Assembly: GCA_017654855.1 (NCBI GenBank)
Contig: CM030338.1
Span: 2,914,001 to 2,978,000, forward strand
Direction: 5' to 3'
DNA from: Podospora anserina
Lineage: Eukaryota
Length of the DNA stretch: 64,000 bases
Shown piece by piece: positions 6,786 to 64,000 of the stretch; within the stretch, counting starts at the first letter, position 1, and every line of letters begins with the position of its first letter. The position numbers were made by a program, and so were the translations under genes. Under the pieces are notes generated by a model. It did no database searches, had not been told where the DNA came from, and saw only the letters and a list, made by a program, of their open reading frames with translations.

Positions 6786-8627
6786 ATGGCCAGCCTCAAG
6801 GCCGTGGCTGCCCTCGCGGCAGTCACCTTGGTTGGTCGTGTCACCGCCACCGAGGTCTTCCTCCCACCATGCCTGGACCCCTTCCAGCCTTTCGTCTACT
6901 CGGGGTGCTTCTCCGAGGCCAGTGGCACCCAGATCCTCCCCTACCGCAGCCCGGCAACTCCTGATGACATGACCGTCGAGAAGTGCGTTGCTGAGTGCAA
7001 GGGCAATGGCTACAGGTATGCCGGTCTCGTCTACTACGGCGTCTGCTACTGCGGTCAAACCGTGAAGGGTGACCTCACCGAGGAGTCTGAGTGCAGCTTC
7101 CCCTGCAAGGGTGATGACACCCAGATCTGCGGTGCCAACGGCAAATTCTCCATCTACCAGGACCCTACCTTCGTCCCCGTCGACCAGACCACCATTGCCG
7201 ACTATGATCCTCTTGGATGCTGGACCGACGACTCTCCTCAGGGGAGAGCCCTTTCCTACCGCCAGGACTCCGTCGATGGCGCCACCATGACCACTGAGAA
7301 GTGCTTGCAGGCTTGCCATGCCGGCGGTTTCCCCTTTGCCGGTACTGAGTACGGCGGTATGTATCCATCTATCCGAGGCTTCTGTCAGCAAATCTCGTGA
7401 AACTAACATGACGCAGGTGAATGCTACTGCGGTGTTGTCATTGGCAATGACACCTACTCTGCCCCCGCCTCCGAGTGCAACATGGCCTGCAACGGTGCCC
7501 CTGACGAGAAGTGCGGTGGCCCTGGTCGCCTTAACCTCTACGCCGCCGACGAGCTCCTGTCTCTCGAGCCCTGCGGCTATGAGCCCCCCGTTGTCTCCAG
7601 CAGCTCGGAGCTCCCTGTCGTCAGCACCGTCAGCACCGAGTCCTCCACCAGCACCCCCCTTGTCGAGGAGGAGCCCACCACCAGCACCACTGTCGAGGAG
7701 CCCACCAGCACCAGCACTCCCCTTCCTACTCTCCCCCCTACCACCTCCACCACCGCGCCCGTGAGCACCACCTCCACCACCAGCTCCGTCTGCGTGACCA
7801 CCACCGTCATCCCTCCCAAGTGCGAGTACAAGTGCGGCAAGTGGTGCTCCAACCCCCTTCCCGACTGGGAGAACGACGCCAAGTCCTGCAAGGCCGCCTG
7901 GACCAACTGCCTCTTGCAGGTTGCCTCCTGCTTCAAGAACGCCGGCTTCCCCCAGTCTCTTGAGTGCTTCAACTTTGGCCAGTGGTGCGCCGATGTCGAC
8001 GACTACTGCGTCAAGACCCCCAAGGGCAAGAAGCACGACTTTTTCGGCAAGAAGCCCCCCAAGGGAGGCAGCCCCGCCACCACCGTGACCGTCACCACCG
8101 CTTGCCCTACCGCCGCTCCCACCTCCACCAAGCCTGCCACCACCACCAAGCCCGCGACGACCACCACCATCTGCCCCACCCCAGCGCCCACCAACATCTG
8201 CAAGCAGCCCACCAACAACTACTACGGCTACAAGCCCGGCAAGCCCGTCGGCGGGATTGACCTGCCCGTCGTGACCTGCAACGACTTGGTTTCGGACTGG
8301 CCTAACTACCCCTTGAAGCGGTACTCGGACCCTGACACGAGAAAGTGCAAGAAGTACAGCCGCTCGACGCCGAGCACTGCCTGCCAGGACGCGTGCAAGG
8401 AGCAGTACGAGGACTGCTTGGATGTTTATGCCGAGGGGTGCAGGAATAATAAGTTTAGGCCGAGGCAGGATAGTTACTTTCAGCAGATGGAGAAGAGGAC
8501 TTTCTGGGGGGGGTGGAGCGACAGCTTTAATGGGGCGAAGGATAAGTGCAGGGCGCAGTATAATGACTGTTTGAGTGTGAATAGGAATGTGGATGTTAAG
8601 GGGAAGTGTAATAAGTTTTGCGAGTAA
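6786..8627 (+). CDS. Secreted protein with two WSC domains, Ser/Thr-rich linkers and Cys-rich C-terminal modules; intron 7357..7416
   Basis: Signal peptide MASLKAVAALAAVTLVG. WSC motifs YSGCFSE..MTVEKCVAEC..YAGLVYYGVCYCG and LGCWTD..MTTEKCLQAC..FAGTEYG|GECYCG. Intron GTATGT..ACTAAC..CAG joins ORFs 6786 and 7482. Confidence 0.9.
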
Positions 8628-8970
8628 AGGGGGAAGGGAAAGAGGTTGGGGGGAAAGAGGGGGGGTGTGATATGATAGGTATAGGATACAGTTCTTACGC
8701 TCTTTGGAGGTATGTGAGTTGACATGTAATTATTAATGAGATTTTTACCGTTTGTTGGTATGTTGCTGTTTCTTGTTCTTTGTGACATGATTTTATTACG
8801 CAGAAAAGAGAAGCAGGGTATTGCAGGCTGTTGTGGCTGGAAAAACTGATGTGGATAAGAAATGGTGGTGTTGGGGGAGAGGGTAGGTTGGCTGAAAGAA
8901 GGTGGCGGCGACCTTAACAATATGAGGGGTAATTCCGCACCCACACAGCATCAATCAATAATACCTCACC

Positions 8971-9070
8971 GGGTGACTAGTCTAGTGGTCAGGACGCTTC
9001 GTTGTGGTTGTTTCCAAAGAAACATCACATACGATCCGAAGAAACCCCGGTTCGATTCCGGGGTCGCCCA
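8971..9070 (+). tRNA. tRNA-His (GTG) with 28-nt intron 9008..9035
   Basis: Acceptor stem GGGTGAC/GTCGCCC; D-arm TAGTCTAGTGGTCAGGAC; anticodon arm CTTCG-TT-GTG-G^C-CGAAG; T-arm CCCGGTTCGATTCCGGG; downstream T-tracts. Confidence 0.95.
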
Positions 9071-9919
9071 CATCTTTTGCCCTCTCTTCTTTTTTACTCC
9101 CCACTCTTCTTCTCTTTTGGCTTGGAGTTGAAGCAATCTGGAAAACACTTGCACTAGAGTTTTCTTTTTCTTCGGGGGTAGCTGCTTCCTCCACAGCATC
9201 TGATGAGGCATGCATGGCCCTGCATCTGCCGCATTATCCTCTTGACGGTGTCTCATGACATTCAAGGAAGATATCTCGACCGTTTTCTCCTGCCCCATCT
9301 ACCTTGGCTTTCATACCCTGATCTTGCTGTCGTCTATAAGTGATGATACCAATGTCGGGAGAGTATAAGTCCTGAAGCTCTTGCAGGGGTGTGATTATGT
9401 GGTTGGTGAAAGGAAACTGTAGTTATGTCTGATGATGTGGCTTTGTGTGTGGGAGACTAGATGTAATTCAGCGGAGGGTTTAAAAGCTAGACGCCAGGGC
9501 AGAGAAGGAAATGAGACCAGATGGAGATTACCCAGGTCGGATATGGATATCAAGAGGAAAGAAAGTTGGGCAATGATGAGTGACGGAGAGACGAAGAGGG
9601 GGAGAGAGCCACTGTCCGAGTTAATCACTACACAACTTAATTGTGTTAGATGTAAGGTATCGAGATAATGTTGAAGGAAGAGAAAGAGGGTGAACGCTAA
9701 GGTGGTTCTTGGTAACGAATTACAACCGTGTAAGGTGTTTCGAATGTACACCTACCTACCCTGATCAGCGCCTGTTGGAACAACCCACCCAGATACTAGC
9801 AACATCTCCAGCACTCTATCTTCCAATTCTCATTCTTCCAACCCAACTACTAAGCTTTGTTTCAAGTTTGCCCCCCAACAATGACCCGCCGCTCCGTCAT
9901 AAGCAAACACCCACACAAT

Positions 9920-10204
9920 ATGTACAACCCTCCCTTCCCCCCTTCTTCCAGCGAAAGTAGCGGAACTCCTTTTTCAACTAAAAGAACCCACAATCCACCA
10001 AAAGTAAACCCGTGTTCCTGCCTCTGCCTGCCTTGTGAAAACCCGGACGGAGTCTCGCTAGGATGGTTCTTCCTGGGGAGCCGGAGCGAATCTATTCGAG
10101 GAAGTAGCTACAGGCCGGTGATTGAAATCCTGGCCGGGTACGGGGTTGAAACGGTGGATAGCTTCGCTTTCTTTTTGCCTTTTGACTGTGAGGAGACTTT
10201 GTAG
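9920..10204 (+). CDS. Possible orphan small ORF (94 aa), or a structured non-coding RNA (see findings)
   Basis: ATG in good context (CACAATATG) and a CSCLCLPC motif; no recognisable family. Confidence 0.2.
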   Translation: MYNPPFPPSSSESSGTPFSTKRTHNPPKVNPCSCLCLPCENPDGVSLGWFFLGSRSESIRGSSYRPVIEILAGYGVETVDSFAFFLPFDCEETL

Positions 10205-10553
10205 AAAAACTTGACTTGAAATCAAAGGGCGAGGTGGGTGGGCATTTGGAGACTTCAGGTTCGCGCTGATCGTTGCATAGGAAGGAAAGGAAAAGAAAAC
10301 CATCTGCTGTGTTTCCGCCGCCTTGTGCTGAAGGATTTCATCTGGTGGAGGAATCGCGAAATGATATTTCTGTCAACAAGAGAGGAAAAAAAGCTGTTGA
10401 CATACATACCTGCACCAGTGAGAAGCCTTGCACAACTATCCCATAACCACACACCACTTGGTTAACTCCTACAGCATAATGCGGGTGAAAAAGAACCAGG
10501 CACCTAAAAAATTTGACAACATGATTGTCCGAGGACATGCACGTTGCAAAATA

Positions 10554-10624
10554 TGCATCAGCCGTGAATCGAACACGGGGCCCATCGATGGCAACGATGG
10601 ATTTTACCACTAAACCACTGATGC
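10554..10624 (-). tRNA. tRNA-Gly (GCC)
   Basis: Reverse complement GCATCAGTGGTTTAGTGGTAAAATCCATCGTTGCCATCGATGGGCCCCGTGTTCGATTCACGGCTGATGCA folds as a 71-nt cloverleaf with anticodon GCC. Confidence 0.97.
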
Positions 10625-11103
10625 TGATCTTTTGAGATGTTGTATCCATTCGGAATGTGGGTTCAACATCGACAGAGCCTGAGTCTGATGACAAACTCAT
10701 GAATGGAGTCCAGAAGAGCTAACACGATGTTCACATACCTCCAAGACAGTAACAAATTCGAGCTTGTATCTAATTCAAGGGGATTTTTGTACAGATATGA
10801 GCTGCACCAGTCAGATCGACAATGCCCCTGAGAAATTGTCTCACAGAATGCGAGACTGGACTTTCTCTCAAAAGCGAAATGACTGCTCATGTCACCCATC
10901 TTCAAGATCATTGCTTGACAGGCTTTTCCAAGCCACCCGCCCCTCCTATCTCACTCATCCCCCTTCTCACGCATCCAAATAGATTCATAACCCAACAACA
11001 AATCTTTTTTCAATATTCCACAAGTGATATACACAGGCAACCCCCCTCCCCCATTGCCCCCTCCCCCATTGCCCCCTCCCCTTCACCCCTCCTATCCTCA
11101 CCC

Positions 11104-11903
11104 TCATTTCCTCTTCTTCCCACCCTGCCCACCCTGCCCCGCAGCCTTCCCCTTGGCCCCCTTAGTCTGGAACACCCTCCTGCTCTTCCTCCAAGCAGAC
11201 ACAAAGTCAGCCACACTCCCCATATCATGCTTCGGCTTCCTCATGTACGTCAACCTCGCCCTCCTCGCCCTCTTCAACCTCCTCTTCACAATCTCAATCC
11301 CGGCAACGTTCCTGTTGTAAATCTTGAACCACATCTCCACTCCCACCTTGCCGATGTGGTTCCGCAGCAGCACCGCAGTGTCAATACCTGCCCTGCGGAT
11401 CGAGAGACAGACACCGGCGAAGGGCTCGCCGCCGCGGCGGTGGGTGACGAGGAGGATGTCGCCTACTTTGGCGGCCTCGCGGGTGCGGGCGAAGAGGGCG
11501 GTGCGGGCGCCGGTGGGGTCGAGCTTTTTGATTTGAAGGTCGTGGAGGGCGGCGACGGGGTTGGTGGTGGAGGGGGGGGAGAGGGGCTTGCCGGCGGCGG
11601 CGAGGGGTGGGGGGTAGAGGGCGAAGGCGGAGCGGACGGACTTGGTTTTTTTGTCGACTAGTCGGTCTGTTTTGTAGGTGTTAGCAACTAGTTGGTAGAG
11701 AGGAGGGGGTTGAGAGAGAGAGAGAGAAACATACAAAAGTTCTGGTCGGGGCCTTGTGATGGTGTTTTTGATGTAGCAGCAGCAGCAGCAGCTTGAACCT
11801 CTGTCGCCAAGGAGCGGGAAAACATCTTTTGTTGTCTCGCCTGGCGGAGGAGGCTGGTCTTGAGACAGCTTAGAGGCCGTCTAGCCAGAGGGGTGACGTT
11901 CAT
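11104..11903 (-). CDS. IMG1: Mitochondrial large-subunit ribosomal protein bL19m; intron 11667..11734
   Basis: Arg-rich presequence MNVTPLARRPLSCLK. L19 core KVGDILLV..FAGVCLSIRRAGIDTAVLLRN..GVEMWFKIY..RARRARLTYMR. Intron GTATGT..GCTAAC..CAG restores frame. Confidence 0.9.
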
Positions 11904-12243: not shown

Positions 12244-13511
12244 ATGTTCACGACATCGAGCGCCGGTGCCCTCAGGGCCGGAGCGAGGAGATTGGAGACG
12301 ACGGTGTGTCACAATGCTAGCCTTCAGAGGAGGTTATTCTCAGTAACGTCGCAAAGAGGTACAGCACAGCACTTCTATATGATAGCTTCTTTTTGTAGAG
12401 GGGTTAAAACTGACTCTACCACCTTACTCTAGCCGGCGGCTTCATCGTCTTCAAAAAGGGCTCCAACCCCGAGCTCCAAGAGCGCCTCGACACCCTCTAC
12501 AACAAGATCGTCCTCCCTTCCTACCTCAGCCAAGAGCAGCAGCGCAAGCTCACCAAGACCAAATATAAAGAACAGCTCCGAAACGACCCCATCACCATGG
12601 AAATCGACGGCGAAATCCACAAGTTCCGCTACGTAGATCCCACAAAGGACATTCCCAGCGCATCCAAACTAGTCAGACAGGCTGTCGAACACATGCAACA
12701 CGAAGACTACCACAACCTCCACCTCGTCCTGAAAGGCTTCAAGCGCGCCAACAGAAAACTTCACGACGAGCTCGCCCTCCACATCATCAGGAAAGCCCAC
12801 CAAGCCGACCGCCTCGACGCTGTCATCGACTGCGCCAAGCAGGTCGAGCTGACGGGCTTCAAGCTCGACTCACCCTTGAAGCTGTCTTCCCTCCTCGTAG
12901 GGGCGCAGACAAGGGCGATCGAGTCCGGCTTTAATCCTAAGCCAGCAAAGAAGGCGCTCAAGCAGACGGAGAAAGTGATTGACTTGCTGGAATTCGAAGG
13001 CAAGAGGCACCAGCCCAGCAACAGGTCCAAGACCCAAAGGCCCTTCTACCACGAGCCGATGTTCCTCGGTTTGAGACTAAACCTTGCCGCCACTCTTGCG
13101 GTAAAAGCCAGGGACGGCCAGGATGAGGACGGGAAGGTGACTCAGTACGCTGAGCAGATGGTTCACTTTTGGCCTGAAAACACTGGCATCCTCGACCTCC
13201 AGCCCGATGCTGCGTATGAGGACCCGCAAAACGTACAATATCTCCTCGACCGCAACGAGTTCCTTTACCATGTGTCGCCTGTGCTTCATGGCTTGCAGAT
13301 GGCTGCCAAGGTGGTGGACCCGGGTCTTTCGATGAAGCTTCAGAACAGGGCGGATGCGCTGGAGGACGAGATTAGACAGGCGTATGAGTGGGACGAGCGG
13401 ATGCCGGCGTCGGGAGAGGTCATGTATAACTGGTTGTTCAACACGGAGGAGATGCTGGGGCGTATCAAGGCGGAGAAGAAGAAGAAGGTGGAAGCGGAAG
13501 TGAACCCATGA
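12244..13511 (+). CDS. Uncharacterised, probably mitochondrial, helical protein (~397 aa); intron 12359..12432
   Basis: Presequence-like MFTTSSAGALRAGARR..RRLFSVTSQR. Intron GTACAG..ACTGAC..TAG joins in frame to ORF 12597; codon usage looks coding. Confidence 0.8.
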
Positions 13512-13637: not shown

Positions 13638-14780
13638 CTATGGGAGGACAATGTACTTCTTGAGATTCTCCGGGATCGCGCTCAGCAAGTTCTTGTTCTC
13701 AAGCCACTTCTTGGAGAACAACCTGTCGGCATATCTGTATGCGCCATCGCAGAGAACCGTGACTACGGTGTGCCCCTTGCCAAGCTTCTCCGCAACCTCC
13801 TTGGCTGCTACCACGTTCAACGCGGAGCTGGCACCGAGATACAAGCCCTCCTCATCCAAACACCTATACACCATCTCGATGGTCTTCTCATCACCGATGT
13901 GCAAACTGCCATCCAGCAACTCCACATCAGGAGCGAGATTGTCGGTTACTCTGCCCTGTCCAATACCCTCCGTGATGCTCGACCCAGACCTCTCAATCAG
14001 TTTTCCGCCCGACTGCAGGTAAGAGTGGAGGACACTCCCAGGGGGGTCGGCCAAAAAGCTCTTGACTTTCCCGTTGGACTTGTCTTTGAGATATCTCGTA
14101 ATCCCCGCCAACGTCCCGCCGGTACCAGTCGCACAAGTAAACGCATCGACCTTGCCCCCAGTCTGATACCAAATTTCCGGTCCCGTCGTCTCGATATGCG
14201 CCCTCCTGTTGGCGGTGTTGTCGAACTGGTTTGTCCAAACGGCGTTGTCCAACCTCTCGGCATGCCTCTTTGCCTGGTGGTTGTAATTTTGTGGGTTCTC
14301 AAACGCGACCGCAGGCACGGGGTAGACCTCAGCTCCTAACAACCGCAACAAATCGATCTTGCCCTGGGACTGGGTGTCGGGCATGTAGATGACCAGCTTG
14401 TAACCTCTTGACCGACAGACGTGGGCGAGACCGATGCCGGTGTTGCCTGCGGTTCCTTCGACCACGGTGCCGCCGGGGCGGAGGAGACCCCTTTCTTCGG
14501 CGTCTTTGACCACGTAGAGGGCTGCGCGGTCTTTGATTGAGCCTCCCGGGTTCATGAACTCGGCTTTGCCGAGGATCTCGCAGCCGGTTTGGGAGGAGAG
14601 GTGGTTCAGGCGGATGAGGGGGGTATAGCCGATTGCGCCGGCGAGCCCTTGGGCGACGCCTTGGGATTTGGAGAGGTTGATTAGGTAGTCGGAGGGGGGT
14701 GCTGGGGGGAGGGGGGCGTTGGCGAGGCGGCGGGTGGTGGTCGCAAAGGTGCGGATGGTGGAGGGGCGTGGGCGGAACAT
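13638..14780 (-). CDS. cysB: Cysteine synthase (O-acetylserine sulfhydrylase, PLP-dependent) with mitochondrial-type presequence
   Basis: PLP lysine motif [31 protein letters not shown] and GTGGT. First ATG is at 14780 (MFRPRPST); the ORF-track start at 14813 is a TTG. Confidence 0.93.
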
Positions 14781-14974
14781 CTTCTCGGTGGTTTGTGGTT
14801 GCCAATGAGGCAACTATACTGTGGGAGACTTGAAGGGAAGAAAACAATGAGAAACTGAAGCTCTACCCAAGTCAAAAGAAAATAAAAATCCGACCTCGCT
14901 CGCCTCGTTTCTTTCAATGACACCCCCCCCGAGAGCGCCGTTGCGGCTTGTAGACCGAGGTGGGGCAACAGTCA

Positions 14975-14984: not shown

Positions 14985-15292
14985 CAAGCGCTAAACCCGC
15001 CTGAAAGGTTAAGCTACGTAAGGGACCTCCCGCCATTGCCGGCCGGCAATTTTTGGCCAGTGTCAAATCCTTGCCACATCTTCCAAGTCGCGGTTCCACT
15101 GTATTTTGTTCGCGGTGCACAGTGACGAACGAAGCCTTTCAAGTTCAACGTAAATGCCATCAACCTAGTTCCTCACACCACTACCTCTTGTCGGATATAC
15201 CACAAATCTGATATCATTCTTCATGGCTCGAATTGCTCCAAATCATCATTATTATTAAAAACCCAGCCGCTTGAAGGCTTCATCGCCCAAAA

Positions 15293-17968: not shown

Positions 17969-18332
17969 TGCCTTCTTCTCCTGGGCCGGTTGTAACGCCT
18001 GCAGGTGGTGGTTCTGCGCCCGCTGCTCCAGCTGGAGTGGTGATGAACCCTCCTCCTTGTCCTCGTCCTCCAATTGTGTCACCAGTAGTATTTGATGTCC
18101 CTCCTGCTGTCCCGGAGGTGGGTATGGCTGCTGACCAGAATAACCACCACCAGCCTGTGCGAACGCAGTAGGATGTGGTTTTTGTGCAGGCTAGGTTTGT
18201 GGTGGGGTATCTGGAGAGGCAGGAAGAGGAGACAGGTATATCAACAAGGAGGAGGGTAGAAAGAGGGAGGGATATATGTTAGGAGGGTGAGGAAAAAGTT
18301 GCTTTGATGAGAGAAGAAAAAGAATAATGGGT

Positions 18333-21003: not shown

Positions 21004-22065
<1,062 letters not shown>

Positions 22066-25537: not shown

Positions 25538-25552
25538 AACCCTAACCCTGAT
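25538..25552. promoter_or_regulatory. Telomere-like AACCCT box, copy 1
   Basis: AACCCTAACCCTGAT, identical to the 15-mer at 31395; regulatory role is inference. Confidence 0.4.
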
Positions 25553-30725: not shown

Positions 30726-30735
30726 GGGAAGACCG

Positions 30736-52092: not shown

Positions 52093-52355
52093 GGTGTTGG
52101 TCAAGGAGCAGAGATAGATGGGATGGCGCCTGGCTTTTAGAGCAGAAGCGAGCGCTGGTTGGTTGAGGAATTCAAATGTATGATAATACCACCCACTTGC
52201 AGTTCACACGATGAATTCATATCAAAGATGGCAAGACTCCATGCTGTCGTCTCCCAGATGTATGTTTTTATTCTTCTTCCATGGGTATCGTAAATCCAGT
52301 AAGTAGTAAACGCTCGCTTTGTTTTATATATATGCTTTCTTGGTCTTCCTCCTCC

Positions 52356-52822: not shown

Positions 52823-53618
52823 GTTGTCAAAGGGGGGTAGTCCTTGCGGTGGTGGTTAAGCTTTCGTTGGTGATTATCGTGAGGCAGTTGGTTTGTGAGA
52901 TTCGGAGGGTGGGCAAGGATCGGAGATACGGCTTGGCTATCCCGTGGTTTGTTAAATTAGGTATCGGCTTTGGAGGAGCCCTCATCATCATGGTGTAGAA
53001 GGTTGTAGTAGGTAGTGGGTGGGTGGGGGGGGGGGCGTGGCAGAAGCGGTGGAGTGGGGCCGGTGATAAAAGCTTGGCATTATTTGTAAGAAGTGTGGGG
53101 ACATGTACCTTTATTACGTGGGGCTTCTACAGGGCAAGAGACAGATGCACTCTAGGAACTGTGCATGAGAAGATCTAGGTTTGGAACCAACAGACGGAGC
53201 TTCTAGAAGGGGGCTGTTGGTGTGTAAGAGGGATGTTGTTGGTCGGTTGGTGGTTTGGGGCTTAAGTAAGATTTGTAGTGAATATTCTACTTTGTAGAGA
53301 CCAGTGAAGAGGTACCCGGGAAGTGGGTGAACAGGTACCGGTGGTCGGGACTCGGGAGCGCACCGTGCACGTGGAAGGGCTGTGGGAAGAACTGCACTGT
53401 GGGGCTTCGCAAGGCACACCCTTGGATTAGTCAACCAACAGGCAACCAACCCGCAGCCACTATGTCAGAGCGCCGTTTCAACTCTTGCCATTGAACTTTT
53501 AACTTCTCTTTCTCACCACCCAATTGCCACTGACAAAAGAGTCGCTGCCATCCCATCGCCCGGCGTTTGTTTGCGGCAACCTCGCCGCGCCCGTACCGAT
53601 AAGATACATTGGGACAAG

Positions 53619-56198
53619 ATGCCGCCGAAAAGAAAGGCGCCTGGCACTCAGGGTGCGGCGGCGAAAGCTGGTCGCACCTCGGCGCTCTCAACGCCCGGTC
53701 CTGGCACCCCGCGCAGTCTTGATAGCTCCATGATGTCCGAGGAGGATGAGGACTTTTTGAACGACGAGGATGTCGATGAGGCTCAGAAGCAGCGCGAGGA
53801 CATGCTCGCGAAGGAGGCGGACCAGTTCGTGAACAAGTGGGCCCTCACCTCCAAGAATGTGGACGGCGGTGAGGAGGCGGGTCAAAGAACCTACGATGCC
53901 GCCTCTCAGTACTTCAAGAAGAGAGACTACTCTCACTACCAGCTCAAGCCCGATCACCAGAACCGCCCGCTCTGGATCGAGCCGGACGGGACCATTGTGC
54001 TAGAGCGCTTCAGCCCGCTGTCAGAGCAGGCCACAGACTTTCTGATCACCATTGCCGAGCCAAAGTCGCGTCCATCTCTGCTTCACGAGTACCGCATCAC
54101 AACGCACAGCTTGTATGCCGCTGTGTCGATTGGTCTCAGGCCGCAAGATATCATAAACACGCTCGATCGCTTCCTGAAGACACCGCTGCCTCCCAGGATT
54201 CTCAACTTCATTAGCAGTTGTACCCAGAGCTACGGCAAGGTAAAGCTCGTGCTCAAGAACAACAAGTACTTTGTAGAGAGCGTTGATACACAACTGCTTC
54301 AGAAGCTGTTGGCTGATCCACAAATTCGTGCAGCCCGCATCTCTGGGACTACTGACATCAGCACCAGCTATGCGCCCACCATGGCCGGCTTGGTCATTCC
54401 CGGCACCAAGAACGCTGCCGGCGTCCACCAGGCCGATCTGAAGCAGGGGAATAATCAAAATGGCGAGCAAGGGCAGGCAGGCGCCGAGGCCGATGTCTTT
54501 GCTGCCTTGAATGAAGAAGATGATGATGACGAGAAGGAAGCCGTTCACTCTTTTGAGATCTCGGATGCCTCGGTCGAAACGGTGCAGAAACAGTGCCTGG
54601 AGATCGGCTTCCCAATCCTCGAAGAGTACGACTTCCGAAACGACAATGTGAACCCTAACCTCGAGATTGACCTCCGGCCCAACACTCTGATCCGGCCGTA
54701 CCAGGAGAAGAGTCTCAGCAAGATGTTTGGCAACGGCAGAGCCAAGAGCGGTATCATTGTCTTGCCTTGCGGAGCGGGCAAAACGTTGGTGGGTATCACG
54801 GCTGCTTGTACCATCAGGAAGGGAGTTATTGTCCTCTGCACGAGTTCTATGTCAGTCGTCCAGTGGCGCCAGGAGTTCCTCAAGTGGTCCAACATCAACC
54901 CAGAGGACATCGCTGTCTTCACAGCCGACAGCAAGAACAAGTTCTCGGGGAGTACTGGCATCATTGTCACCACATACTCCATGGTGACCAACTCCAGAGA
55001 ACGGTCTCACGACAGCAAGAAGATGATGGATTTCCTCAGAGGGCGAGAATGGGGTCTGATGCTCCTCGACGAAGTCCACGTCGTCCCCGCCGATGTCTTC
55101 CGCCGCGTCATCTCGTCTATCAAGTCGCACTCTAAGCTTGGTCTCACCGCCACCCTCCTCCGTGAGGATGACAAGATCTCCCATCTCAACTTCCTCATCG
55201 GCCCCAAGCTCTATGAGGCCAACTGGATGGAATTATCTCAACAAGGCCACATCGCCAAGGTCCAGTGCGCAGAAGTGTGGTGTTCCATGCCCCCGGAATT
55301 CTACGACGAGTATCTCCGCGCCAACTCCCACATGAAGCGCACCCTCTACGCCATGAACCCGAGGAAATTCCAAGCTTGCCAGTACCTGATCAACTATCAC
55401 GAAGCGCGCGGCGACAAGATCATCGTCTTCTCTGATGAGCTTTACTCTCTCAAACAGTATGCTCTCAAACTCAAAAAGGTCTTCATCTACGGCGGCACCG
55501 GCCAGGCGGAGCGCATGCAAGTCCTCGAAAACTTTCAGCACAATCCCGATGTCAACACTCTCTTCTTGTCCAAGATTGGCGACACCTCCCTCGATCTGCC
55601 CGAAGCAACCTGTCTCATCCAGATTTCCTCTCATTTCGGCTCCCGTAGGCAAGAGGCCCAGCGTCTCGGCCGTATCCTACGAGCCAAGCGCCGTAACGAT
55701 GAAGGCTTCAACGCCTTTTTCTACTCTCTGGTATCGAAAGACACCCAAGAGATGTACTACTCCTCCAAGCGCCAGGCCTTCCTCGTTGATCAGGGGTACG
55801 CCTTCAAGGTTATCACTCAGTTAGCCAACATCAACGACACGCCCGATCTTGCCTTTGCCACGCCTCAGGAACGCCGGGAGCTTCTTCAACGAACGTTGGT
55901 CGACAATGAGAAGGGCTTTGAGCAAGACGCCGAGACTGATGATTTGTTTGGGAAGCCCTCTGGCAGGAGAGGTGCTGGGGGTGCCAGGGGAAGGAAGGCT
56001 GGGAATGGGGTTAGGAGGACGGCGGGTACGCTTGGGGAGCTGTCGGGTGGGCAGGATATGGCGTATATTGAGCAGAACAAGGCTGCGAATAAGGGGTTGA
56101 AGGGCAAGGGGGCGGGGAAGAAGGCAGATGCTGGGGGGCAGAATTCGTTCTTCAAGAAGATTCAGAGGGAGAAGGAGAAGATTAAGGGGGCGAGATAA
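53619..56198 (+). CDS. SSL2: TFIIH DNA translocase/helicase XPB
   Basis: [49 protein letters not shown] and [17 protein letters not shown]. First ATG (MPPKRK) is at 53619. Confidence 0.96.
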
Positions 56199-56638
56199 GG
56201 GGCGTGTCCATTGCGGCTTTGCGTTGTCGTAGCAGTGGCTTTTGGCGTTTTGAGACGTTTAGCGAGCAGGGCAAAGGGTGTATTAGATTGTATTTTTTTT
56301 GGATCAACAAGATTGACACAGCATCATATCACAAATGGCGTTGGGCTTGGGATGGGGTTGGGCTGGATGGCTTGCTCCGAGAAGGGGGTATATAGACAGT
56401 TTGCCTTTGGCTCTGTTTCGTGAAAACTGTTAATTGAATGACCAATACATGATGCCATCGTGAACTGCATTTGCCTGATGCTCTGGAACATCAAAATTCT
56501 ATAAAAAAAATTAAAAAAAGAAAACCAATTGACAAAAGAAAACCAATTCTAGAGCCATGATCTAAGTCGGGCATAGTGTCTTTGATGTATACACCTGCCA
56601 TGGCAAATCTCCCCCCCCCTTTGAAAGAGGTAAACAGC

Positions 56639-57140
56639 CTAATCAAGATCATCCTTTTCTACCCAAGTAGGTATTCTTTCAAACAATGCTCGAAAGTCTA
56701 ATGAATCTGTGAGAGATCTATACGCCCCCCTCACTGCCTCGGCGAGAACCTCGCACAAACCGAACCCCCTTCCACGAGCAGCCCCAAGATTGACCTCCAC
56801 CCCTCTACCCACTGATTCCCATCTTTTTGGAGAGAATGATACCCCATCTGATGCCGCCCTCCCATTTACTGACGCCCCGTCTTTTTGAGAATTGTAGCTC
56901 CCAGACGACCTCATCTCAAGCTGTCTTCCTCTCATTCTCCCATCCTGCTGGGAATAGTCGCTGTCAGACGGCCTCATGCCATACTCTCCTTCTCTCATCT
57001 TCCAATCTGGCAGGCGGTTATTTGAAGAATTCGCCGTTCAAGTCCCATGATTCACCACATCACTCCCCCCACCGAGACTGCTGACAGTTCACACCGGTTC
57101 CCCCATTCCCACCATCCTGCTGGAAGTAATCAGGAGGATA
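56639..57140 (-). pseudogene. Possible decayed ORF downstream of PRO3
   Basis: 119-aa ORF preceded by interrupted frames; a repeated DY[FS]QQDG-coding motif. Confidence 0.2.
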
Positions 57141-57208
57141 CCACGTCCCAACTCACCCAAACCCCCTTATCTTCACCACCCTCATGAGACTTTTCCTCAC
57201 TCCCTACC

Positions 57209-58254
57209 CTACTGGAAGTTATTACCAGGAAACCGCGTCCCATTAACCCCCTGCACCCCCTGCCCCAACTGACTAGCCACCACCGTCGCCTCCCTCACAG
57301 CCCTAGCAACCGTCCCCCTCACCCTCCCCTCCTCCAGAACCAACAACCCCCCAATGGTGCACCCCCCCGGCGTGCTAACCTTATCCCTCAACAACGCAGG
57401 GTGATCCCCATTCAGCACCAACCCCGCAGCCCCCTTCATAGTCTGCGCAGCCATCCTCTGCGCCTCCGCCCTCGGCAAACCCATCGCAACAGCCCCATCA
57501 ATAGCAGCCTCAAGCATCAACGCGAAAAAAGCCGGCCCTGACCCACACAGCGAAGTGCAAACATCCATGTTTGACGGAGGAAGGTAGACCACCTCGCCAA
57601 TCCGCTTGAAAATCCAGGTAACCGTCCCCATCGTCTCGGGGTCAAGAGGGGGGTTGCTGATTCCGATGACGGTCATGCTTTCCCTGATGAGGGAGGCAGT
57701 GTTTGGCATTGCGCGGACGATTTGGCAGTTTACGGGCTGGCCGCCGTTGGCGGTGGTGAGGGTTTGGGAGAGCTGGGTTTCGGTTACGCCGGCGAGGATG
57801 GAGATGAGGAGTTTACCACTGAGGGAGGGGGCGAGGGAGGGTTCGGAGAGGAGTTCGTTGACCATGTAGGGTTTGCAGGCCAGGAGGATGATGTCGGCGG
57901 ATTGGACGGCGGGGAGGTTGGAGTTTGTGAGGATTGTTACCGGGGTGGTGTAGGAGGAGAAGGCGGTCTTGAGCTTTTTGGCGGATTCGGGACGTTTGAC
58001 GCAGGCGATGAATTTGGAGGGGAGGCGGGGGGTGGTGGTTGTTTCGTAGAGGGGGGTGGAGGTGCCGGAGGGGGTGGGGGAGGTGGATTTCTCGTCGAGG
58101 GAGGCGAGGATGCCGGAGAGGATTGCTATGCCCATTGTTCCTGGGGGGAAAGTTAGTTATGTGAGTGGTGGGAAGGGGGGTGAGGGGGGGACATACCGCA
58201 GCCGATGACGGCCATGGTGAGCTCGGGGGAGCTGGTGGTTTGAGAAGCGCTCAT
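57209..58254 (-). CDS. PRO3: Pyrroline-5-carboxylate reductase; intron 58141..58196
   Basis: Spliced Rossmann motif AVIGCG|TMG, LLACKP, ISILAGVT, VRAMPNT, GSGPAF and LRDKVSTPGGCTIGGL. Confidence 0.95.
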
Positions 58255-59072
58255 TGTGTTGTGTAGTTGGGTTTAGATGTGTAGTATAAATGTGAGATTG
58301 ACCGATAGGTTATGTGAGTTGAGATGTTCTCACAGAAAACTTGTGCCAAAGTTCGGAGTGAGATGTGAAAGAAGAAGGTGCGTGTAAGTTGCTGCGTTTG
58401 AAGACTCACTCAACTTTTGTGGACACTGTTGTGACGGAGAGGGGCAATTTTGATAATACAACAGACAGAAGAAAAGGAAAGAGCAACATGAACACACACA
58501 CTATAATAAATCACGGGCGACAGCTGACCAAATTTTTTTTTTTTTTTTCTGTTTCTACCATTTATCACACCGAACTCTCATCACCAAACCCATCACAACT
58601 CATCTTCCACACCCTCTTCTTGTGTCACCAACATCTTTTTCTCAAAATTCCAAAATCATTTCCCAGGGTCCAAGTGGCCAAAAACTCACCCCACTATCCC
58701 CCGCCACAACCCTCACCGCCTACCCAAAAAGCGCCTAGATTACCCGTATCCCCAGGGCGGTGGTGCACGAGCCATCACTAGGTAATGGACGACTCTCACA
58801 AGCCTCCAATTGCCCATCAAGGTCCAGCAGCTCAACAACCACCATCATCTTCAAATACAACTGTGCCAAGACAGCAACCACAAAACCCACAACCAGAACG
58901 CGCCGCCGCTGGTCATGGTCCAAAAGTTAATAACACCCCCAACAATACAAAATGGTCCAAAAACAATAGCCAAAAAATAAAAAACCTTTCCAACTACATC
59001 AACAACAACAACCCAACCGGCACAAACCATCATTATCATCATCATCATCACCACCATCACTCCACCAAAAAA

Positions 59073-59936
59073 ATGGCCGATCCCTTCGAAGTGCGAATGC
59101 GTTTCACAAACCAGCTGAGGCAACTCAACGCCTCGGTTATGTCTGCCCAAAAGGCGGCCCAGTTCGCGCTTAAACACCATGAGATGGGGGAGGATTTGCA
59201 TTCTTGCATTTTGGAGCAGCTTGAAAAGGTCCCTTTACCCTCCGCCCCTTACATCCCCACATCATTACTGACAAAAGGACAGAACAACATGAACACCCGC
59301 GCCAACATTATGTACTTTATCGAACACTTCCTCGACCTTGCCCAGAAGGAATCCCACCCTGAATACGTTGTTCTCATGCAGCGGGACATCATCCGCGTCG
59401 TTGACGCTGTCGCTCCCGAAGATGGGACCGGGATCGCAAACGTCAAAGTTGCGAGGAAGGTCCTGCAGGCGTTGGCGGCAAAGTCGTTTCTTGATGGGGA
59501 GCTGCTGAGTCAGATTGAGGAGGTGTTGAGGGAGAGGTATTCTGCCGCGCAGCAGGATCTGGCGCTCATGTCGTCGCCTACTACTGCTGTTGGGGATGGT
59601 GATGTGGGTGGGGGGGGGGGGGTGCCTACGCCGCAGACTAGGGTTTCTACTGGTGGTGGTGGTGGTGGTGGTGGGAAAGGGAAGATGAAGTTGGATAGGA
59701 AGCAGGTTGAGCAGAGGATTGAGGAGGATAGGGAGCGGCATAAGAGGCAGAGGGAGGGGATTTGGGCGGTTAGTCCGGAGAATGAGGCCGAGTTGAGGAA
59801 GTTGTGGGAGGAGACGAGCGAGCTGGGGGAGGATGATGAGAGGATGTGTGATGAGGAGTGGGAGGAGTGGGAGGAGGCGATGGGGGGTGGGTGTGGGCAT
59901 TGGGGGGAGAGGACCAATGGAGATCATCACTCTTGA
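59073..59936 (+). CDS. CTK3: CTD kinase I gamma subunit; probable intron 59229..59282; an upstream in-frame ATG exists at 58785
   Basis: MADPFEVRMRF..LNASVMSAQKAAQFALK..EDLHSCILEQLE|NNMNTRANIMYF and C-terminal RIEEDRERHKRQREGIW are Ctk3 blocks. Confidence 0.9.
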   Translation: MADPFEVRMRFTNQLRQLNASVMSAQKAAQFALKHHEMGEDLHSCILEQLEKVPLPSAPYIPTSLLTKGQNNMNTRANIMYFIEHFLDLAQKESHPEYVVLMQRDIIRVVDAVAPEDGTGIANVKVARKVLQALAAKSFLDGELLSQIEEVLRERYSAAQQDLALMSSPTTAVGDGDVGGGGGVPTPQTRVSTGGGGGGGGKGKMKLDRKQVEQRIEEDRERHKRQREGIWAVSPENEAELRKLWEETSELGEDDERMCDEEWEEWEEAMGGGCGHWGERTNGDHHS

Positions 59937-60358
59937 GTGTTTTACTGGTGGAGATTTGTTATGGTACGTATGGCGTTTTGGGAAGGGGGAAATAATAACT
60001 TGGGGAAACAGCGGGTGTTTGGGGCGTTTATTTTTATTTTGATGGGGAGGAAAAGCAGGATTGGACGGCTGTTGATTAGGTGTGATACCATACCTATAGT
60101 GCTTGTGTATATATATATATCTTGCGGGACTTGGAGGTAGGTACAGGCCTCTTTGAAGAAGCGTCTGGGAAAACAACTGTAACTTAATTATTGACACGGG
60201 GTGCTGTTTTATAGCGACTACCTGCCTGCCTGCCTCCCAACACCAAACCAGAAACGCCGCTGTAAAATTTACACACAAAAGTAAACGTACAAAAAAAAAA
60301 ACCAGAGAAATAATCCGCATGATCCTGGCCTGTTACCAAGCTTTGCTTGCTACCAAAT

Positions 60359-60409
60359 TTACTACTACTACTACTACTACTCCTCCTCCTCCTCCTCCTC
60401 CTCCTCCTC
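60359..60409 (-). repeat. Compound microsatellite (GAG)10(TAG)6TAA spanning the HAT1 stop
   Basis: Plus strand reads TTA(CTA)6(CTC)10. Confidence 0.9.
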
Positions 60410-61962
60410 CTCAACCCTAGCCTTCTTCCTCACACTCCCCCCATTATCGTCATTATCAACCCCCTCCGTCGTCGACTTCCTCTTCCCCTTCCCATTCATC
60501 ACCACCACCACCCCCTCGCCCTCCTCCCTCAGCTTCTGCTCCTGATCCTCCATCTTGACAAGCAACCTCGCATAATCAAACTCAACCCCCTTCACCACCT
60601 CCCCCAGCTTCTCCACCCTCTCCTCTAGTTGGAGCTGTCCAAGCGCGTCCCTATTGTGCACGTACAGCCTCTTCTTGAGCATCAACTTCCAGAGCGCGTA
60701 CTCCTTCCTCTCCGTCGCAGTGGCAACTTTTTTGCTCTCGTCCAGGCCGATGCCCGGACGGACAGACTCTCCCAGCCGGGACATGAGCTGCATTTCCAGG
60801 ACGCGATAAAACTGCCTCTTTGTAATCTTTGCCTCTTTGCGTACCTTTTCGGCGGCGGCCTCGTCGATGATGTTTTTGGGTACGGGCCCTGTTTTGGGGA
60901 TCGGGGTGGAGGTGTTGATCTGGAGGGCTTGGAAGGAGGGGAGGGAACGTAAACAGCGGAGGTCGTTGATGTCGCGCATGTCGTCAAAGGCCTCGTTTGG
61001 GTCCTCGACGGTGATTTCCTTTGTGGGGGGGTGGGAGAGGTAGGTTTGGTAGACCGTGTGGTAGAGGCGGGAGCCGAGGGAGAGGTGCTGGAAGGGGGGG
61101 AGGATGAGGAACTGGGAGATGCGGGAGCGGCAGGGGAGGGTGGTGATGTCGACTGTGGGGGTGCCGAGGGGGAAGTCTTCCTTGATTACGATGGGGTCGT
61201 TGATTGGGGAGGGGGAGGAGGTGTTGTCAGAAAGGGGGGTGGTTGGTGGGGTTGGGGGGAGGTGGAGGAAGAAGAAGCGGTAGACGGTGGAGTAGCCGGC
61301 GAAGATGTAGGTTGGTTTCTTGTTGGAGGGGTCGGTTTTCTTTTGGTAGAGGAAGAAGACGGTCCAGTGGCCGGCGTCTTTGTCGTCGACGTTGATGGCG
61401 GTGCCGCCCTCGATGAAGAGGGGGACGAGGATCTGGATGCGCTTGACGAGCTGCTTGACGGCCGGGTCGGAGAGGGTGCCTTTCCAGACTTCAAAGCGGC
61501 CGGCCTTGTTGGTGAAGCTGGTGAGTAGCTCGCCGGGGGGTGTCCAGTCGTCGCGGGGTTTGGCAAGTTCGGATTTCCAATCTTTCAGGGGTTGGAAGGC
61601 AACCTCGGGGAGGAACTCGGAGAGGACTTCCTTGATGTCGAGGGGTTCGGCGTCGCCTATGGCGGGGAACTGCTTGCTGAACTTGATCTGGAGGTTGGGG
61701 CGCATGTCCGTCGCATTGTAGCGGAGGTTGATTTGGAGGTCTTGGTAGCCAAAGATTTCCTCCTCTTCGCCAAAGATGGGGTATGTGAATCTGGGGTGGA
61801 ATTTGGACTCTTTGCCATTGGAGCCTGGGGCAACGAGAGAGATCACGAAAGCCTCGTTGGCGGAGGCCGTCCCTAGGTAGGTAAGGAAAGCTGGTTAGTA
61901 AATTGGTTTGCGTGGAGTGAAGAAAGCTGGAGTAGCTTACAGGCGCCGTCGTCGTCGGCCAT
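60377..61962 (-). CDS. HAT1: Type B histone acetyltransferase catalytic subunit; intron 61873..61940
   Basis: FHPRFTYPIFGEEEEIFGYQDL, LFIEGG, RISQFLILPPFQHLSLGSRLY and EITVEDPNEAFDDMRD. Exon 1 reads MADDDGA|W. Confidence 0.94.
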
Positions 61963-62420
61963 GGTGGTGATGCGGCTGGCGGTTGCTATAGGATGTATGC
62001 GGCTGGTATGCGGCTGGTAAGCAAAATAAAGTTCTGCGGCTGGTGAGGTTGTGCGGCTTGAATGCGACAACAAAAGCTTCAAGTCGTCGACGAGAAAGTG
62101 GTTCGCGACGCGCTCTAATTGTACGACGCGTTCCACTGCGACGGTTTAATTGAAAGCTCGGGCCACCTTTGACATCCTTGCTGCCACTTGAGCTCCAACT
62201 GGCAACATTCACAACGTTCACAACTAGGTGAATAACAAGAGACTGTACGAAGTCCATGTGTTCACTGGCCACCCGATACCACAACACCCCTCATTCACAC
62301 TGTCCAACCGAGCCAACCCATCCTCTCCTCCTCGCAGTTCCTCGCAGTTTCCTCGCATTCTGCAATAACCAGCCCTTCCCAATCGAGGCTCCCACCAGGG
62401 GTTCTCACCTCAATCTGTAC

Positions 62421-62431
62421 AACCCTAACCC
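62421..62431. promoter_or_regulatory. Telomere-like AACCCT box, copy 3, in the HAT1/ATX2 divergent promoter
   Basis: AACCCTAACCC followed by AAT; regulatory role is inference. Confidence 0.3.
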
Positions 62432-62693
62432 AATCCAGCCAAGCGTAACGGGCTGGCGGGGCCGTCTTGCGCATCTTGCGGCCAGATCGTCCGCCATTGA
62501 TCACCAACCTTTTTGCGCTTGCGACGACACCACCGTTATCTTTTTCTGTGCGGCCGTCGCAAATTTGGTGGTTGGGCCCGTCTTGACCCTCATGAATCGA
62601 CAAAGGGGTCTTTCCCTCTCTCCTCCTGCTCCCCCCGTCAAATAATAGATATACCTATTCAATTTCAAATATCTACCTGCCTGGTGCCCCATC

Positions 62694-63890
62694 ATGAGTG
62701 GCTTAATCTTCCTCGTCGTGACCTCGGTAAGTTTGATGATGCGCCAGCCACCCTTCCCCGCGGCGATTTGTAAGACAACGGGCTAACTCACTGTTTCTCA
62801 TTTCCATAGGTGGTCATGGCCGTGGCGTATGTTCATCACAACCTTCTTCCTCAAGCCACCATCTAATTGACCCCCCCCTCTTCGCGTTTGTTACAGCTCC
62901 TTCCTCGCCGGCGCACTCCCCTTATCCATCAGCCTCACCCAATCCCAACTCCGCTTCGTCGCCTCCCTCGGCGCGGGTCTTTTAGTTGGATCATGCCTTA
63001 TAGTCATTGTCCCCGAGGGCATAGAAGCCATCGCCTCCGCCTCCTCCGACCATCACCACGACGATAATGCCCCGCACCGTCACCGTCGCGATGATCCCCC
63101 TCAGACCGAAGACGACGAGCTCCCAGCCTTCCACATCGGCCTCTCCCTCATCCTCGGCTTCGCCCTCATGTTCCTCATCGACCGCCTCCCCCGCCATCTA
63201 ACAGACCGCTTCACCCCTCCCCCCCAATCCCGCCACGTATCCCTCGACAACCTCTCCACTCACCAACCCGATTCCGACCTCGAAGACGAGTCCTTCCTTG
63301 GAAGTTTGACACCCTCCCCGAAACAATCACGATCACTAGCAACGACAATAGGACTGGTGATCCACGCGGCAGCAGACGGGGTTGCGATGGGGGCGTCAGC
63401 GACAACATCAAACATGAACGTCGGCCTGATCATCTTCTTCGCCATTCTGGTCCACAAGGCCCCCGCGGCGTTTGGGCTCACGTCTACGCTGCTTAAGCAA
63501 GGGTTGAGCAAACGAGCGGCGAGGGTGCATCTCATGGTGTTCAGCCTGGCGGCGCCGGTGGGGGCGCTGGTGACGTATTTCATGGTGGGCATGTTGGGGG
63601 GGGAGCATTTGGAGGGGGAGGAGGAGGGGGGGAAGTGGTGGACGGGGATGCTGCTCTTGTTCAGCGGGGGGACGTTTTTGTATGTGGCTATGCATGCTAT
63701 GCAGGAGGAGAATTCTTTTGGAGTTGGGGGGCATGATCATGCTGGGCAGGGAGGTGGGGGGGGTTATTCAGAGGTTGGGAATGGGGGGAATAGGAGGGGG
63801 GGGAGGTTGGAGTTGAGGGATACTTTGGGGACGGTGGTGGGGATGTTGCTGCCTTTGGCGACGAGGTTTGGGCATCATCATCATCATTAG
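62694..63890 (+). CDS. ATX2: ZIP-family Zn/Mn transporter (Atx2/ZIP9-like); introns 62727..62809 and 62827..62896
   Basis: Spliced MAVA|SFLAGALPL..GAGLLVGSCLIVIVPEG; TM4 GLVIHAAADGVAMG, TM5 VHKAPAAFGL, and LLFSGGTFLYVA. Confidence 0.9.
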
Positions 63891-64000
63891 GGGGAGGGGA
63901 GCTGATGTGTGGGTTTTTTTTTCTGATGGCGTTATTGGGACAAGGGCGGGCTTGGATAGCGATGTTTATTGTTTTTGTGGGATAAAAAGGGGGGTGATGG

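Follow-up and report, generated by a model that had tools for sequence, protein, structure and literature searches.

What makes the sense strand of a gene run C-rich over its first few hundred bases and G-rich over its last few hundred? The question is raised by a 64,000-nt stretch of Podospora anserina DNA (assembly GCA_017654855.1, contig CM030338.1, positions 2,914,001–2,978,000, forward strand), called the window here and numbered from its first base, in which many genes carry such a pair of blocks. The initial annotation of the window had described the blocks, introns included, and traced them either to a mutational process centred on intergenic sites or to selection for messenger RNA (mRNA) pairing or G-quadruplexes. 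Analysis of this one 64-kb window, with 38 orthologous loci from other fungi, identifies the pattern as the gene-end GC skew of fungi already described in 2011 by McLean & Tirosh (BMC Genomics 12:638, PMC3315797), and the window is a further, extreme example in a species absent from the 2011 list. The cause of gene-end skew in fungi, and in plants, has been open since 2005–2011.

On the + strand, GC skew, (G − C)/(G + C), swings between about −0.8 and +0.7 along the window (300-nt windows). In 200-nt windows its mean absolute value is 0.264–0.269 across the whole window versus 0.079 in 20 mononucleotide shuffles, and |skew| exceeds 0.4 in 24.8% of these windows and in 0% of the shuffled ones. 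Segmentation of the skew smoothed over 150 nt, with |skew| > 0.25 and a length of at least 150 nt required, yields 62 blocks that total 23,678 of the 64,000 bases, or 37% of the window; block lengths are 150–800 nt. This independent procedure recovered every C-then-G block named in the initial annotation, at near-identical coordinates, and also returned MIS12, CTK3 and PRE6, which had been listed as further examples. The skewed blocks are single-copy: comparison of the window with itself by BLAST gave four non-self high-scoring segment pairs, all of one 33–34-nt match, which rules out repeats, transposons or repeat-induced point mutation as the source of the skew. A replication-origin-like skew was dropped as well, the period being about 1–2 kb and tracking genes.

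Nineteen gene models were made for the analysis, with strands assigned from Pfam matches; nine, all in 44–64 kb, are backed by spliced RNA contigs from four public runs, and the other ten are approximate, assembled from open reading frames (ORFs), Pfam matches and predicted introns. Over all sites, sense-strand skew is higher in the last third of the coding sequence (CDS) than in the first in 18 of the 19 models, the exception being YL1. Of 16 blocks with centres in the first 40% of a coding span, 14 are C-rich on the sense strand, and of 23 with centres in the last 40%, 20 are G-rich on it. Read along the + strand, C-to-G switches lie wholly within a coding span in 15 of 18 cases, while 17 of the 18 G-to-C switches reach an intergenic gap, the remaining one lying inside YL1. 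The same G-to-C switch occurs at divergent, convergent and tandem gaps, and the blocks are mirror-symmetric about these gaps. The earlier description of the pattern as independent of strand adds no property of its own, since a C block followed by a G block is its own reverse complement; because the order reads alike on both strands, the description reduces for every gene to a single rule, a sense strand rich in C at its 5′ end and in G at its 3′ end.

The average profile around coding ends locates the bias more closely. Sense skew flips sign about 250 nt upstream of the ATG, is −0.34 over the last 100 nt before it, stays at −0.32 to −0.39 from ATG−100 to ATG+199 with 18 of 19 genes negative in each bin, and is back to zero by about +600. 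Toward the other end it climbs from zero at about 500 nt before the stop codon to +0.46 in the last 100 nt, where 17 genes are positive and one is negative, remains at +0.42 over stop+0 to +99 and is near zero by +200. Logistic fits to all G and C bases give G/(G+C) plateaus of about 0.2 and about 0.8, the same for 5′ and 3′ blocks. In the long genes SSL2, MRN1, DLD2, TRK1 and TIF32 the blocks are weak or confined to the ends, in keeping with the observation in the initial annotation that TIF32, MRN1, TRK1 and DLD2 largely lack the pattern.

Several lines of evidence place the bias outside the protein sequence. Pooled skew at fourfold degenerate sites is −0.51, −0.20 and +0.20 in successive thirds of the CDS, and it rises from the first to the last third in 16 of 19 genes, VMA22, MRN1 and SSL2 being the others; MRN1, SSL2 and DLD2 show little or no effect at these sites. 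Its course is from −0.94 to +0.95 in PRO3, −0.73 to +0.84 in the histidine-phosphatase gene, −0.83 to +0.91 in ATX2 and −0.74 to +0.80 in IMG1. Synonymous codons were shuffled within each gene for 1000 rounds, preserving both the protein and the gene's own codon usage; the pooled change of 0.705 compares with 0.100 ± 0.038 in these controls and was reached in 0 of 1000 rounds (z 15.8). The synonymous switch from C to G that had been proposed is thus confirmed, and the skew is far stronger than in codon-shuffled controls, the comparison on which the proposal had been staked. Fourfold bases along these genes form long runs of C and then long runs of G, and in 18 of 19 genes a step model, which carries one more free parameter, outperforms a linear logistic trend; in nine of them the margin exceeds 5 log-likelihood units.

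Introns and untranslated regions (UTRs) behave like the coding sequence around them. Introns from the 5′ third of genes number 11 and have a pooled skew of −0.71, with no G at all in two of them; the three in the 3′ third have skews of +0.74, +0.73 and, in DLD2, a gene without the pattern, −0.19. All six introns cited in the initial annotation match the local block: those at 31684, 42606 and 51207 are C-rich (−0.81, −0.83 and −1.00) and those at 24973, 43910 and 51708 (given there as 51709) are G-rich (+0.74, +0.73 and +0.50). Codon positions 1 and 2 shift too, from a pooled skew of −0.105 to +0.199, and the residues move with them. The ratio of last-third to first-third usage is 0.53 for Ser, 0.69 for Pro and 0.70 for Thr, against 1.87 for Gly, 2.17 for Trp and 1.63 for Met, with Glu, Val and Lys also higher late; the anticipated drift from Pro/Thr/Ser to Gly/Glu/Val is therefore real, and Trp, Met and Lys join the late set. 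Since introns and UTRs follow the block, fourfold and twofold sites both carry the bias and synonymous sites are the most biased, protein-level selection is not the explanation, as the initial annotation had argued. The bias sits in the DNA or the pre-mRNA and secondarily reshapes the ends of proteins.

The direction of the change can be read at synonymous sites of the 12 switching genes. Across the step, fourfold composition goes from 11% to 7% A, 63% to 15% C, 13% to 57% G and 13% to 21% T, so that A+C falls from 74% to 22% while G+C barely moves (76% to 72%). Twofold sites change from 0.77 to 0.41 in C/(C+T) and from 0.61 to 0.90 in G/(G+A). On the sense strand, amino bases (A+C) thus give way to keto bases (G+T), through transitions as well as C/G transversions. 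Inside coding regions AT skew is +0.05 to +0.18 when all sites are counted, and at fourfold sites it is −0.14, −0.12 and −0.44 by thirds.

The genes that carry blocks, with gene spans or the parts examined, are as follows (C and G denote C-rich and G-rich blocks; centres are switch centres).

6786–8940, + strand: WSC-domain gene (Pfam, gene model), CDS 6786–8627, predicted intron 7357–7416; sense C 7627–8252, G 8433–8940 into the 3′ flank, centre about 8377 by segmentation and logistic fit; fourfold G fraction 0.08, then 0.75.
10872–11903, − strand: IMG1, mitochondrial L19 (Pfam), CDS 11903–11104, predicted intron 11667–11734; on the + strand C 10872–11353 (gene 3′ end and flank), G 11461–11794 (5′ part), centre 11398.
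12435–13511, + strand: unnamed gene (coding score), ORF 12414–13511 with the true start uncertain; C 12435–12606, G 13338–13499; fourfold skew −0.76 to +0.55.
13638–14826, − strand: PLP-dependent enzyme gene (Pfam); on the + strand C 13790–13950 (3′ end), G 14589–14826 (5′ end).
15166–17975, + strand: YL1/SWC2-like gene (Pfam), CDS 15293–17968; two cycles, C 15166–15594, G 15920–16488, C 16584–17510, G 17688–17975.
18941–19789, − strand: VMA22 (Pfam); sense strand C-rich throughout, fourfold skew −0.71, −0.60, −1.00.
31627–32831, + strand: MIS12 (Pfam), predicted intron 31684–31785; C 31653–31886, G 32080–32831, centre 32077.
39099–42198, − strand: PPR-repeat gene (Pfam); + strand C 39099–40444, so that about 1.2 kb of the 3′ end is G-rich in the sense direction, the 5′ end being weakly skewed; fourfold skew by thirds −0.14, +0.28, +0.62.
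42482–44131, + strand: histidine-phosphatase gene (Pfam), CDS 42504–44079, predicted introns 42606–42676 and 43910–43962; C 42482–43150, G 43332–44131, centre 43227.
45203–47230, − strand: Zn(2)-Cys(6) regulator gene (Pfam, RNA contigs), three RNA-supported 5′ introns, coding model incomplete and excluded from codon counts; on the + strand C 45203–45768 (3′ end), G 45874–46380, centre 45785.
50933–52165, + strand: PRE6, proteasome alpha (spliced contigs of four runs), CDS 51078–52092; C 50936–51301, spanning the 5′ UTR, two introns (skew −0.77 and −1.00) and a 7-nt micro-exon, then G 51934–52165, with intron 51708–51763 between.
55928–56390, + strand: G-rich part of the SSL2/RAD25 helicase gene (Pfam), CDS 53619–56198; G-rich solely in the last 8% of the CDS and the 3′ UTR, the body being C-biased at fourfold sites; the step falls at codon 794 of 860, with a G fraction of 0.30 before it and 0.95 after.
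56654–58442, − strand: PRO3, P5C reductase (Pfam, RNA), CDS 58254–57209, RNA-supported intron 58140–58195 containing no G; on the + strand C 56654–57512 (3′ end and 3′ UTR), G 57687–58437 (5′ end), centre 57621.
58517–60146, + strand: CTK3 (Pfam, RNA), stop codon at 59936, RNA-supported intron 59227–59280, 54 nt, in frame and stop-free; C 58517–59112, G 59455–60146, centre 59432.
60276–62058, − strand: HAT1 (Pfam, RNA), CDS 61962–60377, RNA-supported intron 61872–61939 (skew −0.77); on the + strand C 60276–60686 (3′ end), G 60864–61422 and 61831–62058 (5′ part), centre 60783.
62219–64000, + strand: ATX2/ZIP transporter (Pfam, RNA), CDS 62694–63890, RNA-supported introns; C 62219–62406 and 62803–63311, G 63528–64000, centre 63475.

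PRO3 is the strongest case, with fourfold G/(G+C) of 0.02 (n=101) and then 0.92 (n=52) across its step, and YL1 is an exception, containing the only G-to-C switch within a coding span. In its second C block, a Pro/Thr/Ala/Ser-rich stretch, the skew resides in codon positions 1–2. Fourfold sites of its central region (16283–17572) are 39% A, versus 7–11% in other genes, and this centre is an A/C-rich tract in which A-ending codons replace C-ending ones.

The ends of RNA contigs are weak hints of transcript ends and cannot prove a transcript start; as such a hint, at the 5′ ends of PRE6, PRO3 and ATX2 the distance from block edge to contig end is no more than about 55 nt. Contigs of two runs span the convergent pair SSL2–PRO3 (53604–57273), and bridging of this kind implies that the two transcripts abut or overlap. 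The 3′ UTR of PRO3 may be about 700 nt long, and the G-to-C centre at 56488 is near the contig ends of other runs (56481). In CTK3 the Pfam domain begins at ORF residue 99 and contigs of two runs begin, with adapter, at 58848–58850; translation probably starts at 59073 rather than 58785, and the apparent His-run N-terminus is then probably 5′ UTR. Start 58785 was used in the codon counts, shuffles, intron assignments, metaprofile, step fits, composition and the G-quadruplex and pairing tests, and moving it to the more likely 59073, which transfers 96 codons to the 5′ UTR, alters no direction. Two micro-exons have spliced-contig support: the 7-nt exon of PRE6 (51200–51206), the inclusion of which restores the conserved proteasome N-terminus, and a 15-nt exon of ATX2/ZIP (62812–62826), for which one run (X6) has an alternative joint 62725/62809.

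The large exon of PRO3 matches, at 100% identity, a protein cluster that carries the name Podospora pseudoanserina, which puts the window within the P. anserina complex, in the Sordariales. Orthologues indicate whether the switch belongs to the protein. From 38 loci on metagenome contigs that encode PRO3 relatives, 24, some of them near-duplicates, were examined, and in 21 of the 24 (17 of 19 among those without in-frame stops) fourfold skew is higher in the last third than in the first. The largest change among these relatives is 1.18, compared with 1.89 in the PRO3 of the window. Best-fit switch positions range from residue 84 to residue 263 among 18 orthologues, and this variation means that the boundary is not tied to a conserved protein position. 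The displacement is visible codon by codon: between residues 91 and 169, at fourfold codons conserved with one orthologue (L001), 14 of 35 sites have C in the window and G in that orthologue, and one has the opposite arrangement. In such pairwise comparisons of conserved fourfold codons, directional C/G differences fall in the intervals where the boundaries of the orthologues differ. Mean |skew| in 200-nt windows is 0.351 for 53001–62000, versus 0.113–0.301 in 33 other fungal loci of at least 3 kb; the phenomenon is widespread, and it is unusually strong here relative to the sampled fungal loci.

The explanation we prefer, to which we assign about an even chance, is that mutation or repair is strand-asymmetric in a manner tied to transcription units and that the blocks are its equilibrium. 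The sense strand is C-rich and somewhat A-rich over the first ~300–700 nt of the unit and G-rich, with T enriched at neutral sites, over the last ~300–700 nt. End blocks of this length make a short gene one C block plus one G block and leave a long gene with a near-neutral middle. The process would act as a mirror image to the left and right of each intergenic region, with G+T enriched on the strand that points its 3′ end to the nearest such region; this strand would be the template strand of transcripts leaving the region; the 3′ block might represent a separate regime of the termination phase, or antisense or divergent transcription starting downstream of the gene. The available text of the 2011 paper leaves the cause open between mutational regimes that vary by phase of transcription and selection, and reports that skew is strong in Candida albicans but weak in Saccharomyces cerevisiae (PMC3315797). 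Published correlations of skew with expression are a weak link to transcription (text of PMC3315797; abstract of PMC555766), and together with the contrast between the two yeasts they favour transcription over meiotic breaks as the driver. The localised strand-asymmetric mutation at intergenic sites put forward in the initial annotation finds support in the mirror image around gaps (17 of 18 G-to-C switches reach one), and loss from one strand of cytosine, which it invoked, and of adenine would give the amino-to-keto direction; its centring on intergenic sites gains nothing over anchoring on transcription-unit ends, since both predict the same signs.

A number of observations weigh against this transcription-linked process. 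The amplitude in PRO3 is very large for a mutation bias and would need an asymmetry of tens-fold. The purine share at fourfold sites rises from 24% to 64% across the step, which transitions alone are insufficient to produce, so that C-to-G transversions or selection are required. The switches are fairly abrupt, with a 10–90% width of 0–390 nt in 10 of 11 C-to-G fits. If the non-template strand were simply exposed, or if R-loops formed, one would expect 5′ ends to be G-rich, opposite to what is seen. The C block of CTK3 begins about 330 nt upstream of its only hinted transcript start, VMA22 has no 3′ G block, YL1 switches internally, MRN1 and SSL2 are mostly flat, and ten of the gene models are approximate. 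Near-saturation, the purine/pyrimidine shift and the fairly abrupt switches together keep selection on the nucleic acid a live rival. The ten strain differences in the RNA contigs are too few for polarising substitutions, and the orthologues have diverged too far at synonymous sites; at compositional equilibrium, substitution fluxes would not tell mutation from selection. A more unified form of the process, which we consider rather doubtful, is that every intergenic nucleosome-free region fires outward both ways, so that the 3′ G block of a gene is the 5′ C block of an antisense or divergent transcript that starts downstream of it. The first few hundred nucleotides of any outward transcript would then be driven to an A/C-rich non-template strand, skew would favour strand-specific exposure or repair that adds more skew, and each stretch would settle in one of two states with a mobile boundary between them. 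A self-reinforcing process of this type would yield near-saturated plateaus, fairly abrupt switches and moving switch points.

Selection acting on the nucleic acid rather than the protein is possible, though we judge it the less probable account beside the transcription-linked process. It would maintain a G-poor, A/C-rich 5′ end that keeps nascent RNA unstructured and without stable RNA:DNA hybrids, and a G-rich, C-poor 3′ end that slows or pauses RNA polymerase II and aids termination in a compact genome; in the variant of McLean & Tirosh, cytidine triphosphate (CTP) is limiting and avoidance of C at the 3′ end, which the available text links to CTP supply and polymerase collisions, paces polymerases (PMC3315797). 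An adaptive hypothesis is one of the two offered in that text. Synonymous near-saturation, fairly abrupt switches, a changing purine/pyrimidine ratio at fourfold sites and equal 5′ and 3′ plateaus all suit it, and the higher amplitude here than in other fungal loci (0.351 versus 0.113–0.301) is possible under such selection in a compact genome. Against it, switch positions are not conserved between orthologues, several genes are without the pattern, and the CTK3 block reaches upstream of the hinted transcript start. That introns follow the pattern argues against selection on the mature mRNA. Nor do the specific targets suggested in the initial annotation hold up. Runs of three or more G number 137 in the last 300 coding nucleotides of the 12 switching genes, versus 165.3 ± 7.5 in shuffles, and canonical G-quadruplex starts in the 3′ coding ends of the same genes number 14 versus 21.9 ± 8.9, so that neither G-quadruplexes nor G-runs are enriched there. 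Pairing of 5′ with 3′ blocks is not gene-specific, the duplex energy being −125.4 for own pairs and −127.5 for cross pairs, with own-partner ranks from 1 to 12; generic pairing may occur, as A/C-rich 5′ blocks and G/U-rich 3′ blocks are broadly complementary whichever genes they come from.

The break-resection model of the initial annotation, which we regard as improbable, holds that recurrent double-strand breaks in intergenic nucleosome-free regions are resected 5′ to 3′ and that the exposed strand loses cytosine, by deamination from C to T and by C-to-G change after uracil removal, leaving G/T-rich left and C/A-rich right flanks. Those signs are the ones seen, the symmetry about gaps is as expected, and loss of C with gains of G and T matches the fourfold composition, in which C drops from 63% to 15% as G goes from 13% to 57% and T from 13% to 21%. 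Yeast meiotic resection tracts are of the same order as the 150–800-nt blocks, Podospora goes through meiosis every generation, and S. cerevisiae has known promoter hotspots of meiotic breaks. From sexual cycles and hotspots one would expect skew in S. cerevisiae to exceed that in C. albicans, the reverse of what the available text of PMC3315797 reports. The 3′ blocks at the convergent gaps CTK3/HAT1, MIS12/TRK1 and SSL2/PRO3 are as strong as 5′ blocks, so that breaks would be needed in every gap, including those without a promoter; varied resection lengths should give a gradient rather than plateaus, and break frequency per site is low. Least probable by far is an artefact of protein composition or codon usage, in which disordered Pro/Ser/Thr N-termini and Gly/Glu C-termini would make the blocks. 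Codon positions 1 and 2 do shift, shuffles with the protein fixed retain +0.100, and positions 1–2 bear the second C block of YL1, but the fourfold change lies 15.8 standard deviations above those shuffles, introns and UTRs track the local block, and the effect is strongest in PRO3, a conserved enzyme. The codon shuffles reject the artefact overall, and it is true only locally, in YL1.

Skew extends beyond the genes listed above. The stretches 3100–6700, 8700–10800 and 25200–28200 contain no Pfam-supported ORF, and a Pfam scan of 20 ORFs, 17 of them in or near these stretches, gave a single match, a Ras-family GTPase at 21537–22157. The three stretches nonetheless carry strongly skewed blocks (for example G-rich 4624–5193, 8433–8940 and 26694–27116; C-rich 9765–10005 and 27529–27906) and may hold orphan genes, long UTRs or non-coding transcripts. 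DLD2 contigs extend about 1 kb past the stop codon (47830–48834), beyond a 60-nt intron at 48867–48926, and the extra sequence is a very long 3′ UTR or else belongs to a small − strand gene so far unrecognised. Antisense to real genes, stop-free ORFs of 355–770 codons with no Pfam match lie at 6729–8729 (−), 28236–30548 (−), 39241–40797 (+), 23369–24982 (−) and 59265–60332 (−); they are probably a by-product of the strong skew. Homopolymeric residue runs in skewed ends agree with the local base bias: poly-Glu at the HAT1 C-terminus (~60377–60410), poly-His at the C-terminus of the ZIP transporter (~63873–63887), poly-Gly from GGT repeats in CTK3 (~59700–59760) and poly-Gln near the MRN1 N-terminus (~28480–28560), all at approximate coordinates.

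The effect is strong enough to flip codon usage in the middle of a gene, and proteins appear to acquire from it N-termini rich in Pro/Ser/Thr and C-termini rich in Gly/Glu. The long false antisense ORFs that skew opens are a hazard for annotation and gene callers, and analyses of codon usage, dN/dS and gene prediction in Sordariales should allow for a position-dependent strand bias. Podospora anserina is genetically tractable and could therefore serve for direct tests of the cause of the skew.

Skew of this kind has counterparts in other systems. In human genes, Ginno et al. reportedly found GC skew linked to R-loops, with G-rich gene 3′ ends in gene-dense regions that were proposed to aid termination. 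G-rich 3′ ends on the sense strand and a tie to transcription-unit ends are common to both systems; the human 5′ skew is reportedly G-rich, whereas here 5′ ends are C-rich, so that feature is not shared. Transcription-associated mutational asymmetry in mammals is a weak excess of G+T on the coding strand, of one sign along the gene. The 3′ blocks described here likewise gain G+T and lose C+A on the sense strand, but here the skew changes sign inside the gene, with an amplitude many times that of the mammalian effect. Intense strand skew within coding sequence is also the mark of GRINS, genetic repeats of intense nucleotide skews, said to occur in bacterial polyketide synthase genes (PNAS 2021); unlike those repeats of bacterial gene clusters, the blocks here are single-copy by self-BLAST.

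Within the fungal literature, titles among the matches listed for Podospora GC skew concern organelle genomes only, and among those listed for Neurospora, coding-strand and R-loop skew, none besides the 2011 paper is on fungal gene-end skew. Later papers that name its title phrase deal, in the parts available, with organelle genomes, a brain-abscess microbiome or the low GC skew of yeast. Fujimori, Washio & Tomita (2005, BMC Genomics 6:26, PMC555766) described an excess of C over G, with a presumed link to transcription, surrounding transcription start sites in plants as well as some fungi, like the sense C excess at the starts of units here, where 18 of 19 genes are negative from ATG−100 to ATG+199. 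The skew in their abstract covers about ±100 bp at the 5′ end only, with no 3′ counterpart and nothing on synonymous sites deep in genes.

The closest comparison is that of McLean & Tirosh (PMC3315797). The available text of their study of about 60 fungi, which include Neurospora crassa, Chaetomium globosum and Magnaporthe grisea (Podospora is not among them), describes a coding strand with a bias to C at the 5′ end, a bias to G at the 3′ end and an intermediate state in mid-gene, with the effect also present at fourfold sites, in promoters and in 3′ UTRs; 3′ skew is maximal close to the stop codon, AT skew taken over all sites stays positive with a flat course, and amino-acid usage is shifted, Trp being about twice as common at the 3′ end. 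The 5′ C and 3′ G bias, its presence at fourfold sites and in flanks, the residue shifts and the peak at the stop codon all recur in the window. That text gives all-gene averages with gradual ramps, whereas single genes here switch within a few hundred nucleotides; it reports a similar effect at degenerate and non-degenerate positions, whereas here synonymous sites exceed positions 1 and 2. It also argues from all-site AT skew against C-to-T deamination, whereas in the window T rises with G at twofold and fourfold sites. Relative to the text available, the window adds near-saturated synonymous sites, fairly abrupt switches, an amino-to-keto signature, equal 5′ and 3′ plateaus, and switch positions that differ between orthologues.

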